A DNA stretch of 64,000 nt, taken from positions 808-64,807 of the forward strand of contig JBNAVB010000001.1 of the NCBI GenBank assembly GCA_049699715.1. The letters are read 5' to 3'. The notes beneath the pieces are model-generated. The model saw nothing but the letters and a program-made list of their open reading frames with translations. It was not told the DNA's origin and made no database searches. The DNA is from Candidatus Pacearchaeota archaeon. GTDB lineage: Archaea; Nanobdellota; Nanobdellia; Pacearchaeales; UBA284. Below, one piece after another: positions 19,078 through 47,587 of the stretch; within the stretch, counting starts at the first letter, position 1; every line of letters starts with the position of its first letter. Made by a program: the position numbers and the translations under genes.

Positions 19078-20535
<1,458 letters not shown>

Positions 20536-20729: not shown

Positions 20730-20838
20730 GGGCCTGTAGTTCAGCGGTAGAATGCCTCCCTTGCACGTGAGGGAAGTGTCCCTTCACAACTCTCACTAAG
20801 AACGGAGGAGGTCGTGGGTTCGATTCCCACCGGGTCCA
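20730..20838 (+). tRNA. tRNA-Ala(TGC) with a 37-nt intron after position 37; no encoded CCA
   Basis: Acceptor GGGCCTG/CGGGTCC with the G3:U70 alanine identity pair, anticodon loop CTTGCA|intron|C, T-arm GTGGGTTCGATTCCCAC. Intron spans about 20766..20802. Confidence 0.85.
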
Positions 20839-21193
20839 TAATTTTCTACTGCTCTACTGCATGACAATATACGAGAGAGAAATCATGTTCATCAGCAACG
20901 TCGGAAACGTTGCAATTCTTCAGATGAATCACAAAATATGACGCTGGTAAGTGTAACTTGCCGGCCGAGTTGATGCTTAGAAAATCTTTTAGGAAAAGAT
21001 TTCCCAAGAAAATGAAACTTTTCTGAGCGCCGAAAATCTTTGATTTTCGAGCGTATCAAAAGAAATCTTTCCTGAAAAGGCAAATGAGATATCATAGTAA
21101 GAAAGCACAACAACTAGACATAAGTCTTTTTCATCTTCGAAAAAGATTTATCAAAGTGGTTGGAAGCGTTAAGCTTGATTAATTTATTAAACT

Positions 21194-24078
21194 GCTAGAC
21201 GGATGACTTGGCTTAGATTGTGATGAAGGACGCGGCAAGCTGCGATAAGCTTGAGGGAGCCGCATGCAGGCTTTGATCTCAAGGTCTCCGAATCTGAAAC
21301 AGATTGTTCGAAGAGAACAATATTCTTTGAGAAAGCATACGCTGGGAATTGAAACATCTTAGTACCGGCAGGAAAAGAAAATAATAATGATTCCCTTATT
21401 AGCAGCGAGCGAAGAGGGAACAAGGCAAACCGAATCCGCTAGGGAAACTTAGCGGAGATGTGGAGTTGGCCGGGTTACACCTAAGGTCATTGAGTTGAAG
21501 TCTCCTGGAAAGGAGCGCCGTAGAGAGTGATAGCCTCGTAAACAGGATGATTATGGTGAGTGCCCGTGTCCAAGAGTAGCGCGTCCCGGTTAGGACGCGT
21601 GAATATGGTTCTACTAAGAACTAACTTTAAATATGAATCTAAGACCGATAGCGCACTAGTACCGTGAGGGAATGTTGAAAAGTACTTCTAGCGAAGAGTG
21701 CAAAGACCTGAAATCTAGCAGTTATAGTCAGTTACTGCTCTCTACGGAGAGTTGTAACATACGTTTTGGAAAACGGGCCAAGGAGTTGATGTGAGTGGCA
21801 AGGTTAAGTTGCTATGCAACGGAACCAAAGCGAAAGCGAATGTTCGTATCGCAAGAAAGGAACAGTGTATGAAAATGCATTAGTCACTAGCATCAGACCT
21901 GAAACCAGGTGATCTACTCGCGAGCAGGATGAAGCTTCCCTAACGGGGAGTGGAGGTCCGAACAAGTGCTATGGGCAAGTGCTTTGATGACTTGTGAGTA
22001 GGGGTGAAAAGCCAATCTAACCTGGCGATGGCTGGTTCCTGCTGAAATATACTTTAGTATAGCCTCTTGTTAGTTGGCTATCATGGTAGAGCGACGGATG
22101 GGACATGCAGGCAAGTTTTCTTGTCGGTGTCCTTTCCAACTCCGAATGTGGTAGCAACGCAGCAAGGGAAACAGGTGTGCGGGGTAAGCTTGTACACCGA
22201 AACCGGAACAACGGAGACTAGAGTTAAGGTCCCAAAATGTTAACTAAGTGCTTTTGAAAGGAGTCTTGATTCTGAGACAGTTGGGAGGTAGGCTCAGAGG
22301 CAGCCACCCTTTAAAGAAAGCGTAACAGCTCACCTATCGAGAATCAGGGCACTGAAGATTGACGGGGCTAAGTTAACTACCGAGACTCTTGTGTTTTTCC
22401 TTCGGGAAAAACAGGTAAGCAGGCGTGCTGTCTGGGCAGAAGCCTCTTCGTAAGAAGGGGTGGACCGGATAGTAACGAGAATCTTGGCATTAGTAGGATC
22501 ATACTTACGTGAGAGCCGTAAGGGTCGTAAGAGCTAGGGTTCCTCGACAATATCGATTAGTCGAGGGTTAGTCGATCCTAACTGTGTACTTAACTGATAC
22601 ACGGGAAAATGGGGGGCATGTTAATATTCATGCGCTGCCTAGCATCGTTAAAGTTTTCGAGGACACTTCGAGATAAACAGAGTGTATCTGCAAAGACATT
22701 TCTTGCAAGAAGATTGTGGAGTATCGTAATGATGAGAAACGATTGAATTGCGAGAACGAAAGTCTGTTGATTCTTGGAGTCCGTGAAAAGTCGAAAATGA
22801 AGATGTTAGGCAATCGTACCTAGAACTTGCACTGGTGCTCTTGCTGAGAAGGCAAAGATCTGCAAGCTTAAAGCTGGTAAGGGAATTCGGCATATTGGTC
22901 CTGTAGCTTCGGTAGAAGGGATGCCTATATTCGTGTTTAGAAATTCTTAGATGCGAAGGTAGGTTGCAATAACAAGGATCGCCCGACTGTTTATCAAAAA
23001 CGTAGCCAAGTGCTAGGCCGAAAGGCTTCGTACACTTGGTGAGACCTGCCCAGTCGCGGTGTTTAAAACTCCTTTTCAAGGGAGCTAAGACCCGTGAAAC
23101 GGCGGGCCTAACTGTGAGGCTCTTAAGGTAGCGTAATACCTTGTCGTCTGAATGGCGACTTGCATGAATGGTTTAACGAGGTGGTCACTGTCCCTACCAG
23201 CGAGCTTCCGAACCTCTCATCCTGGTGCAAAGACCAGGGACGTCTAGTGGGAAGCGAAGACCTTGTGGACCTTTACTGCAACTTGTAGTTGTTTTTTGTA
23301 ATGAAATGCATAGAGTAGCTAGGAGAGATGAAGCGTAGCTTTGGCGAGGCGGATCGAAAGTGTAACACTAGCTATTTTTTTACAAGAGACTCACTTGAAA
23401 AAGGACAGCTACTGGCGGGCAGTTTGGCTGGGGCGGCACCCTTCCGAAAAGATATCGGAAGGGCCCAATGGTGAGCTCAGCGTAGTTGGAAACTATGTGT
23501 AGAGTGCAGAGGCAAAAGCTCGCCTGACTGTGACTCGCAAAGAGAGAGTCGCAGATACGAAAGTAGGGCTCAGCGAACCTTGATGCTCCTTTAGTGGGAG
23601 CTCAATGTGACAGAAAAGGTACCCCAAGGATAACAGGCTTGTCGCACCCGATAGTCCATATTGACGGTGCGGTTTGGTACATCGCCGTCGGCTCTTCCTA
23701 TCCTGGCTGTGCACAAGCAGCCAAGGGTGTCGGGGTTCACGCATTAAAAGGGATCGTTAGCTGGGTTAAGAACGTCGCGAGACAGTTTGTTTGATATCTA
23801 CTAGACGTGTTGTTGCCTGAGTGGAAGAAGCAAGTAGTACGAGAGGAACCTTGCTTCGAAGCCTCTGGTTTAGCGGTTGTCCTTATCGGGCAGGCCGCGC
23901 AGCTACGCTTTGACTGATAAGAGCTGAAAGCATCTAAGCTCGAAGCAGCCCGCAAAAATAGGCAACTAAGGCCGTTGAAGAAAACAACGTTGATAGAGTT
24001 GGGGTGTAAGGCCAAAGGCAACGATGGTTTCAGCCCGCAACTACTAAAAGCCTCTTTTTAACAAGTAAGGCTTCCAAT
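21194..24078 (+). rRNA. 23S ribosomal RNA (ends approximate)
   Basis: 5' GGATGACTTGGCTTAG...GAAGGACGCGGCAAGCTGCGATAAGC; internal sarcin-ricin loop region AGTACGAGAGGAAC; 3' region GATAGAGTTGGGGTGTAAGG...ACTACTAA. Confidence 0.85.
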
Positions 24079-45815: not shown

Positions 45816-45944
45816 TAGCGGGGGCGGGATTTGAACCACGCGACCTCAAGGTTATGGGCCCTTCGCTTTTGTTTTAAAACAAAATTGCGAGCTAACCAGG
45901 CTGCTTTGGGCAACACTTATTGTTTTTAGTGTTTCCACCCCGCT
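45816..45944 (-). tRNA. Probable initiator tRNA-Met(CAT) with two non-canonical introns (D-arm and anticodon-stem positions); irregular T-stem
   Basis: Minus strand: A1:U72 acceptor pair (AGCGGGG/CCCCGCU), A11:U24 in the D-stem, GGG/CCU in the anticodon stem and a CCCAUAA loop, T-loop TTCAAAT. Two inserted hairpins (~29 nt after position 10; ~24 nt perfect palindrome TTTTGTTTTAAAACAAAA between 27 and 28) must be removed to give a 76-nt cloverleaf. One unpaired U remains in the T-stem and position 33 is C, so a degenerate gene is possible. Confidence 0.4.
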
Positions 45945-46012
45945 ATACCTGGAAAAACCATAAAGGTCTATCCCCGCAATAGTTTATCGAAGATAATCCT
46001 TATAAAGTTTTC

Positions 46013-46645
46013 TTATAAGAACTTTTCTGCACGTCGTTTATATAACTCATTCGAACTGCCCACTACATCAAACCATTTTTTCAATTCTTTTTTACCACTT
46101 ATTCTAATTTTTAATTTGCCTTTTTCTAATCGCTGAATTCTATAAGAAAAATTGTTTTCTTTTAAGATATCTATAATTTGTTTCTGCGCTGGGCAAGGAG
46201 ACATTCTAATTTCTATTCTAGGATAAAGAATCCCATTATTTCTAAATATAGTCACAGAACCATCAGTATCAAATAAGCCTCTTAAAACTAACAAAGCCAG
46301 TCTTCCTTTAACATAGTCTTTAGGAATTTCCATTCTGTTCCATTTTGGAGATTTTTTAAGTCCAAGGACATTTATAGCATAAAGTACCTTATCTTTTCTG
46401 AAAATTCTTATATCTGTAGCATTTTCACTTTTTTTGAAATGCACTTTTGGAGGGAGTCCCATTACTTCTTTCATTAAATTAAAAACATGGCCAATATATT
46501 GCTTATTTCTAGAATCGAGGGTAACTTTCAATTGGTGTAATTTTTTACTTTTATTTTCTTGTTTAAAATCATAAATACCTATACTTCCGTCTCCCAACAT
46601 TACTCCTATGAATTCGGCGATTTTCTCCTCTTTTAATTTTGCCAT
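46013..46645 (-). mobile_element. Free-standing LAGLIDADG homing endonuclease gene (two-motif, single-chain type)
   Basis: Two LAGLIDADG motifs, IGVMLGDGSI and LRGLFDTDGSV, about 100 aa apart; 210 aa. Sits between two tRNA genes, 12 nt from the next tRNA. Confidence 0.65.
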
Positions 46646-46656
46646 CTTATAAAAAA

Positions 46657-46731
46657 TGGGGCTGCCCGGATTTGAACCGGGGCCGCGAGTGCCCTAGACT
46701 CGTATACTAGACCAAGCTATACTACAGCCCC
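46657..46731 (-). tRNA. tRNA with apparent anticodon AGG (Pro) — unusual A34; no encoded CCA
   Basis: Minus strand GGGGCUG/CAGCCCC acceptor, T-arm CCCGGUUCAAAUCCGGG, anticodon stem CGAGU/ACUCG with loop CUAGGGC. D-stem weak (GUAU/GUAU with G:U pairs). Confidence 0.55.
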
Positions 46732-47463: not shown

Positions 47464-47587
47464 GCCGCGATGGCCCAATGGTAAGGCGCAGGTTTGCTAA
47501 AGAATCTTTTTAGAAAAAAGATTCTATCAAAAAATGCAAACAACCTGTTTCCGAAAGGATATCTGGGTTCAATTCCCAGTCGCGGCG
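47464..47587 (+). tRNA. tRNA-Ser(GCT) with a ~42-nt intron at the canonical 37/38 site and a long variable arm
   Basis: Acceptor GCCGCGA/TCGCGGC, anticodon stem CAGGT/ACCTG with loop TTGCTA|intron|A, variable-arm hairpin TTCCGAAAGGA, T-arm CTGGGTTCAATTCCCAG. Confidence 0.75.

Follow-up and report, generated by a model that had tools for sequence, protein, structure and literature searches.

Among the closest described counterparts of the locus studied here are phage systems of collaborative, or trans, homing, in which F-CphI is paired with the psbA group I intron and T4 mobE with the I-TevIII intron (PMC6083498, PMC2790892). As in those systems, we found a free-standing endonuclease gene beside a gene whose intron is defunct or lacks an open reading frame (ORF), with endonuclease and intron inherited together. 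The locus lies in a 64,000-nt stretch of contig JBNAVB010000001.1 from a Candidatus Pacearchaeota archaeon (hereafter, the window), where 900 bp hold three features: an initiator tRNA gene, a LAGLIDADG gene and a tRNA-Pro gene with anticodon AGG (Table 1). The F-CphI and mobE cases come from phage genomes and pair self-splicing group I introns with Endo VII-type or HNH enzymes, whereas the window combines a cellular genome, a protein-spliced bulge-helix-bulge (BHB) intron in a tRNA gene and a LAGLIDADG enzyme, whose cleavage at the insertion site is presumed. Comparison of the sequences makes it probable that the locus comprises a functional initiator tRNA gene, a functional tRNA-Pro gene with A at position 34 (A34), and a mobile, tRNA-linked endonuclease gene that is co-inherited with an intron at position 29/30 of the initiator tRNA, in a proposed arrangement of collaborative homing.

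Other known systems share aspects of this locus. I-Tsp061I and I-DmoI, LAGLIDADG enzymes of archaeal rRNA introns, have the same monomeric two-motif fold, an archaeal host and the same link to BHB introns in a stable RNA gene. Only 16-18% of their sequence is identical to the window protein, and they are encoded inside the intron that they mobilize, whereas the window ORF is located outside the tRNA gene and the intron is a 24-nt sequence without an ORF. The tRNA “intron transposition” of Thermoproteales and others likewise involves several short non-canonical BHB introns and lineage-specific gain at the same site in different tRNAs (PMC4090602), as seen here at position 10/11 of the initiator tRNA and tRNA-Gln. 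Those introns are not known to have a linked endonuclease, whereas the window has an adjacent candidate for a driver acting at the DNA level; according to the same review, the mechanism of tRNA intron transposition is unknown (PMC4090602). Broad-specificity splicing endonucleases have been described in DPANN archaea, in which an L3 loop goes with relaxed recognition of BHB motifs (PMC5829648). Finally, enzymes of the same superfamily are encoded by LAGLIDADG insertions in rRNA genes of bacteria of the candidate phyla radiation (CPR), ultrasmall hosts that co-occur with DPANN archaea (PMC11270868). These insertions are inside the rRNA genes, whereas members of the present family neighbor tRNA genes, those for tRNA-Ser in CPR bacteria and for a variety of tRNAs in DPANN archaea. 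Free-standing homing endonucleases, BHB introns and A34 tRNAs are all known kinds of element; the tRNA-linked family and the endonuclease-intron cassette appear to be new variants of these.

The original prediction for this DNA, made from its sequence, included a 210-aa ORF for a two-motif LAGLIDADG homing endonuclease embedded in no intron or intein, and our analysis agrees with it. The product matches the Pfam families LAGLIDADG_2 (32 bits, cut-off 25) and LAGLIDADG_3 (26.3 bits, cut-off 22.5), and the ORF is outside any intron or intein, about 70 nt from the initiator tRNA gene. No record was found in an exact-sequence look-up of the ORF product, and a database search returned at least 269 homologues; the 120 listed are 192-237 aa long and form clusters that are almost all represented on one to a few contigs each. 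An alignment of 15 homologues has a mean column identity of 69% and many invariant columns, among them the aspartates of both motifs. As a profile search of PDB sequences returned only I-DmoI, with E = 0.076, structure prediction was required. The AlphaFold2 model, with a predicted local distance difference test (pLDDT) score of 94.5, gave as best Foldseek matches I-Tsp061I (from an archaeal 16S intron), PI-PfuI and I-DmoI, with probability 1.00 and E values of 1e-10 to 1e-8. Pfam, alignment and model concur on two LAGLIDADG helices with acidic residues and a doubled alpha-beta-beta-alpha-beta-beta-alpha fold. The ORF is, judged by sequence and model, a monomeric two-motif LAGLIDADG enzyme, predicted to be catalytically intact by its two retained aspartates. 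We found no second LAGLIDADG gene in the window. The idea that the ORF had once been intron-encoded was abandoned, as in none of about 100 loci does the ORF lie inside a tRNA or between split exons; a viral element was also rejected, a scan of viral contigs having given one weak match at 26% identity.

We analyzed the surroundings of the homologous genes in 80 loci taken from one-genome-per-species contigs, of which 75 were informative (labels such as L001 denote homologue loci or metagenome contigs compared with the window). A tRNA gene was found within 200 nt in 72 of the 75, a count that joins script results to four cases confirmed by eye, vs. 20% of control ORFs in the same loci. The family spans DPANN archaea and CPR bacteria, and the tRNA gene has one of two arrangements: tandem, on the same strand immediately downstream, or convergent, with the stop codon in contact with the tRNA 3′ end. 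Homologues of at least 36% identity, from Woesearchaeota, Pacearchaeota, Nanohalobium and Altiarchaeota, adjoin the initiator tRNA; more distant archaeal homologues adjoin tRNAs for Gln, Asn, Thr, Phe, Pro(GGG) and others. The CPR homologues are located beside tRNA-Ser in 27 of 29 informative loci, and in L045 and L075 the nearest tRNA-Ser is 290-480 nt away. In a neighbor-joining tree the proteins cluster by adjacent tRNA (iMet, Gln, Phe, Thr, Asn), and the bacterial Ser-linked proteins split into UGA, CGA and GCU sub-clades. We found no description of a tRNA-linked LAGLIDADG family in the searchable open-access literature, and a 2024 survey of LAGLIDADG insertions in CPR rRNA genes nowhere mentions tRNA (PMC11270868); the family is apparently both large and undescribed.

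Two features of these loci concern the borders of the gene. The endonuclease gene is often located between two tRNA genes, as in the window (tRNA-Pro and initiator tRNA) and in the CPR loci L054, L060, L071, L081, L085 and L086 (two tRNA-Ser genes), and such paired flanking tRNA genes could act as conserved homology arms for recombination. In the convergent loci L013, L017, L020, L008 and L011, the ORF ends at or inside the tRNA 3′ end; in L013 (4340-4345), the stop codon TAG is the complement of tRNA positions 71-73.

Comparison of near relatives suggests that the endonuclease gene is mobile. Genes for a family B DNA polymerase and RNase HII flank the locus on one side, and the gene for ribosomal protein S2 flanks it on the other. 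The S2 genes of L166 and L003 are 87% identical in nucleotide sequence and their tRNA-Pro is the same, but L166 displays tRNA-Pro, 43 nt and then an intronless initiator tRNA, without the endonuclease, whereas L003 carries the endonuclease-tRNA unit, inverted relative to the direct orientation of the window, between the same flanks. No endonuclease remnant was found in the empty loci, L166 included. An endonuclease-free set came from a metagenome search with an initiator tRNA pattern starting at G30, whose matches were mostly bacterial fMet tRNAs and only about 21 archaeal; among the 21 archaeal initiator tRNA loci from metagenomes, a single one has the endonuclease gene. Between the window and L002, the proportion of synonymous differences (pS) is 0.285 in the endonuclease gene vs. 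0.77-0.80, saturated, in those for RNase HII and S2, and nucleotide identity reaches 95-100% over most of positions 46235-46600 (with a dip to 83-87% around 46415-46505) vs. 60-83% in the flanks. At the protein level, identity is 90% for the endonuclease vs. 79%/81% for RNase HII/S2 in one comparison, 84% vs. 60%/67% in another and 70% vs. 50% in a third. The distribution is sporadic and the history of the gene unlike that of its flanks. Presence and absence, low synonymous divergence, inversion and rarity thus speak for a selfish element that recombines rather than for a host gene that is fixed, and the endonuclease gene looks selfish and mobile. This agrees with the intron or endonuclease mobility proposed earlier for the locus, as does an intron unique to the window (see below).

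The same data bear on another possibility, that the LAGLIDADG protein is a domesticated, vertically inherited host factor tied to its tRNA gene, such as a gene-specific DNA-binding, regulatory or processing protein. Its conservation, higher than that of RNase HII and S2, would also fit a host function and weighs against mobility; a ratio of nonsynonymous to synonymous divergence (dN/dS) of about 0.16 between the window and L002, the many invariant columns, protein clades that follow tRNA identity, and a single copy among housekeeping genes point in the same direction. We nevertheless consider domestication quite unlikely, in view of the gain or loss between near relatives without remnant, the near absence from archaeal metagenome loci, the synonymous divergence far under that of the flanks, the flips in orientation, the occurrence of the family in both archaea and bacteria and the retention of both catalytic aspartates. 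In L166, the minus strand of the locus holds an ORF of about 115 aa for a hydrophobic product between the initiator tRNA (484-559) and RNase HII, which the window lacks.

The partner of this presumably mobile gene is the initiator tRNA gene. Its raw sequence is not called by ARAGORN, with or without intron mode, and has no Rfam match at the gathering threshold or at E values up to 10. Reading by hand with two inserts taken out gives a perfect 7-bp acceptor stem closed by A1:U72, a D arm, a T arm and a CAU loop, with A11:U24 also in place. Removal of nt 11-39 and 61-84 leaves 76 nt that ARAGORN calls tRNA-Met(CAT) and that are identical to the intronless gene of L166, which scores 56.3 bits with the Rfam tRNA model, in support of the initiator-type tRNA first read at 45816-45944 on the minus strand. 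Archaeal initiator tRNAs are marked by A1:U72, A11:U24, the CAU anticodon and three G:C pairs between positions 29-31 and 39-41. The window gene has A29:U41, G30:C40 and G31:C39, the third G:C pair being the sole hallmark that it lacks, and all three pairs are present in L004, L007, L009, L010 and L015.

An unpaired U in the T-stem and C33 had left open whether the gene is degenerate. Both are indeed present, but over 30 related genes, intronless ones included, likewise have GGCCCAUAACC and GYR(Y)GG/CCYRC, with compensatory changes in the T-stem; such conservation indicates that C33 and the T-stem pyrimidine are lineage traits rather than signs of decay. C33 in place of U33 and an extra pyrimidine in the 5′ strand of the T-stem are a trait of the clade, regardless of the presence of the endonuclease, and were seen in the window and in L090, L100, L102, L107, L112, L115, L135, L136, L148, L161, L163, L166, L192 and L202. 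A decaying pseudogene whose inserts are junk rather than spliced introns would account for the failure of ARAGORN and Rfam on the raw gene, for C33 and the T-stem bulge, and for only two of three anticodon-stem G:C pairs. It would leave unexplained the complete identity of the exons with an intronless gene elsewhere, the BHB geometry of both inserts and the retention of C33 and the bulge in genes whose T-stem pairs covary, and we found no other initiator tRNA in the window; this explanation is hardly credible. The initiator tRNA gene is functional-looking by these comparisons and interrupted by two BHB introns. The archaeal splicing endonuclease would excise these at 10/11 and 29/30 to give a 76-nt tRNA, with A1:U72, A11:U24, C33 and a bulged T-stem pyrimidine predicted in the mature molecule.

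The alleles also differ upstream of the tRNA. Endonuclease-bearing tandem alleles have the box TTTATAAG about 55-62 nt upstream of the tRNA, together with a hairpin leader, and in the tandem relatives, as in the window, this box is 3′ of the ORF. Initiator tRNA genes without the endonuclease (L089-L202) have instead the promoter CTTTAAAAG at about −36 to −27 and no leader, a spacing that implies a nearly leaderless transcript.

An archaeal BHB intron displays two 3-nt bulges, each cut after the second nucleotide, with a 4-bp helix between them. In intron 1, the central helix pairs G5-U8 with G34-C37, the bulges are GG|A and AA|A and the intron helix has 6 bp, a motif that is exactly the local minimum-free-energy fold of nt 1-46. 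In L001-L006, the same tRNA lies downstream of the same ORF with the junction GGGGTGG|AGCAGCC uninterrupted, which places intron 1, with its 29 nt, at 10/11, the site first proposed. Among the relatives compared it is confined to the window genome, and no second copy was found in the window. In the tRNA-Gln genes beside related endonucleases (Table 1), the 10/11 intron has the same BHB architecture, that is, a central helix from positions 5-8, a 3-nt bulge and an intron ending in GCGGAA or GCCCAA. Intron 1 would be the more recent, lineage-specific gain, of a type that also occurs at the same site in tRNA-Gln.

Intron 2 had been described as a 24-nt perfect palindrome between positions 27 and 28. 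Its length stands, but it is made of an 18-nt palindrome plus GCGAAG, and it is inserted at 29/30. The second insert is also carried by L001-L006, with variable sequence, and the intron of L001/L002 ends in GCGATT, which excludes the 27/28 junction. Moreover, L004 reads CGCAG|...|GG with the 3′ strand CCCTG where the window reads CGCAA|...|GG with CCTTG, and this covariation between A29:U41 and G29:C41 places intron 2 at 29/30. The L001/L002 end and the G29:C41 pair of L004 eliminate both the 27/28 junction and an alternative placement (m2) with a CAGGG stem. The central helix of its BHB motif is U24-C27/GCGA, the bulges are AA|U and AG|G, and the palindrome forms the intron helix; in the window the 5′ bulge measures 2 or 3 nt, as it may close to 2 nt. 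In every locus, positions 24-27 pair with the four intron bases preceding the 3-nt 3′ bulge, with four of four pairs formed in all 11 distinct tandem endonuclease-bearing loci, and the helix covaries, being UCGC/GCGA or, in distant relatives, CCGU/GCGG. Both introns thus have BHB geometry, and their joint removal gives the L166 gene.

A further intron was found outside the locus. A tRNA-Ser(GCU) gene at 47464-47587 (plus strand) has a 42-nt canonical intron at 37/38, and its orthologues in L001, L002, L003 and L166 are intronless, at 82 nt. With intron 1 confined to the window and the tRNA-Ser(GCU) intron absent from these four loci, this genome appears, from comparison with its relatives, to be a recent gainer of introns. 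The true S2 start is probably further downstream than called, as the beginning of the long ORF assigned to S2 overlaps tRNA-Ser(GCU).

The association between the endonuclease and the 29/30 intron is complete in the tandem loci. The intron is present in 11 of 11 distinct tandem endonuclease-bearing initiator loci, and none of 20 endonuclease-free loci has any intron (Fisher p = 1.2e-8, uncorrected for relatedness). It persists at 29/30 in distant initiator-linked clades, and at 30/31 in Altiarchaeota. Among the initiator-linked loci compared, we saw no allele with the intron only and no tandem allele with the endonuclease only. Adjacency and co-inheritance, which characterize collaborative homing, are thus both found in this system, in the 11/11 vs. 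0/20 distribution and in the states of L166, L003 and the window. Based on these observations, we propose that recombination at the tRNA locus carries the endonuclease gene from one related genome to another and that, in the initiator-tRNA branch, this gene and the 29/30 intron form a cassette inherited as a unit. An initiator tRNA gene free of the intron would be cut by the enzyme at the 29/30 site or close to it, the intron would break the target site and so protect the carrier, and repair of a cut empty allele would copy the intron and the nearby endonuclease gene, in a process of collaborative homing. In its full form, namely a widespread, undescribed family of free-standing LAGLIDADG genes with tRNA homes, in which the enzyme and a 21-43-nt BHB intron at 29/30 make up a two-part mobile element whose intron breaks the target of the enzyme, this model is put forward tentatively.

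Several observations weigh against it. The loci are phylogenetically non-independent, so that Fisher p-values overstate the support. The convergent loci L008, L011, L013 and L020 have the endonuclease without the 29/30 intron, and the enzyme of L013 is 71% identical to that of the intron-bearing L014, which indicates that the intron is not the sole route to self-immunity. In the tandem tRNA-Gln locus L078 the endonuclease is present and the tRNA intronless, the bacterial tRNA-Ser partners have no introns, and the tract of near identity shared by the window and L002 lies within the ORF and is not continuous with the 29/30 site. The convergent, tRNA-Gln and bacterial loci without the intron, the position of this tract, and the ORF stop that abuts or overlaps the tRNA 3′ end in L013, L017 and L020, would be expected if the endonuclease were mobile and tRNA-linked but the intron, 100-170 bp away, a mere passenger swapped along with it. 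The real target would then be elsewhere, for instance in the tRNA flank or 3′ end, and be disrupted by the inserted gene itself. We regard this as a somewhat doubtful account, since it does not explain the perfect co-occurrence in tandem loci, the lack of intron-only and tandem endonuclease-only alleles, or the constancy of the intron position in distant initiator-linked clades, with its shift to 30/31 in Altiarchaeota.

The third feature, tRNA-Pro, scores 56.7 bits in Rfam vs. a gathering score of 29, and its anticodon loop is CUAGGGC. ARAGORN and Rfam bear out the AGG anticodon read earlier on the minus strand, and A34 is genomically encoded, as in the inosine-34 (I34) wobble system, here in an archaeon. 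Reviews report that archaea are without any ANN anticodons (PMC8007984, PMC11066159) and that they have no A34 deaminase (PMC8007984), and on that ground A34 might be taken for an assembly error or the mark of a dead gene. However, the same A34 is found in five independent assemblies, the window and four relatives' loci (L001, L002, L003 and L166), and compensatory changes in the acceptor, anticodon and T stems keep all stems paired, with CUAGGG fixed; an error or a dead gene is therefore very improbable. The distant relative L050 has a GGG anticodon instead. From its sequence, tRNA-Pro(AGG) is an exception to the archaeal rule of no ANN anticodons.

Two A34 tRNAPro molecules are useful for comparison. 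The eukaryotic tRNAPro(AGG) shares the anticodon but is converted to IGG, and in a Salmonella mutant, as summarized in PMC11066159 from Chen et al. 2002, unmodified A34 decodes CCU and CCC; the window gene differs from both in being natural and archaeal. According to that summary, unmodified tRNAPro(AGG) reads CCU and CCC with approximately equal efficiency and is even able to read the full set of four codons (PMC11066159, citing Chen et al. 2002). By analogy, A34 in the window tRNA-Pro is most likely used unmodified for CCU and CCC, and possibly for all four Pro codons, which number 501 in the window ORFs (CCT 185, CCC 66, CCA 171, CCG 79). ARAGORN also calls tRNA-Ser genes with the A34 anticodon ACT in several CPR bacteria, some of them beside a LAGLIDADG gene (Table 1); this anticodon has been reported as universally missing in the Ser/Arg split box (PMC8007984).

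The host is a DPANN archaeon of the Pace-/Woesearchaeota type. Rfam finds archaeal 16S (19078-20535) and 23S (21175-24065) rRNA genes and several tRNAs in the window, and the relatives are annotated as metagenome-assembled genomes of Nanoarchaeota, Pacearchaeota or Woesearchaeota. The 16S-23S spacer contains a tRNA-Ala(UGC) gene (20730-20838, plus strand) with a canonical intron of about 37 nt.

Table 1. Features of the tRNA-endonuclease locus in the window and related tRNA genes in the loci compared (positions refer to the window unless an L-number is given)
Feature	Position	Strand	Basis or remark
Initiator tRNA exon 3 (tRNA positions 30-73): C33, anticodon CAU, extra U in T-stem 5′ strand	45816..45860	-	
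Intron 2, 24 nt, at 29/30	45861..45884	-	Covariation and BHB fold in relatives
Initiator tRNA exon 2 (positions 11-29)	45885..45905	-	Relatives and spliced-product comparison
Intron 1, 29 nt, at 10/11	45906..45934	-	Junction in relatives and local minimum-free-energy fold
Initiator tRNA exon 1 (positions 1-10)	45935..45944	-	Relatives and spliced-product comparison
5′ leader/spacer with partly conserved hairpin	45945..45998	-	Only in endonuclease-bearing alleles
TATA-like box TTTATAAG, presumed tRNA promoter	45999..46006	-	Just past the ORF stop; putative function
Free-standing LAGLIDADG gene, 210 aa, motifs LGDG (D19) and DTDG (D128)	46013..46645	-	Pfam
tRNA-Pro, anticodon AGG (A34), 75 nt, no intron	46657..46731	-	ARAGORN and Rfam
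tRNA-Gln with 10/11 intron	L042:4711-4891, L055:1235-1346, L084:3327-3429		
tRNA-Ser(ACT)	L044:4593-4677, L045:123-210, L060:3439-3526, L082:6980-7064, L085:3441-3526		ARAGORN

The locus has implications for tRNA annotation, for decoding and for the spread of introns. Standard tRNA finders miss essential tRNAs in these genomes, and tRNA-Pro(AGG) provides a natural archaeal counter-example to the rule that ANN anticodons are absent. The endonuclease family would represent a previously unremarked class of selfish elements in two radiations of ultrasmall cells, with every clade bound to a single tRNA and, in CPR bacteria, even to a particular serine isoacceptor. The gain and movement of short archaeal tRNA introns await an explanation, and a candidate driver makes the question directly testable. 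If true, the two-part element would provide a mechanism, the first at the DNA level, by which ORF-less tRNA introns spread in archaea, and would plausibly represent a stage on the path to endonuclease-bearing BHB introns.

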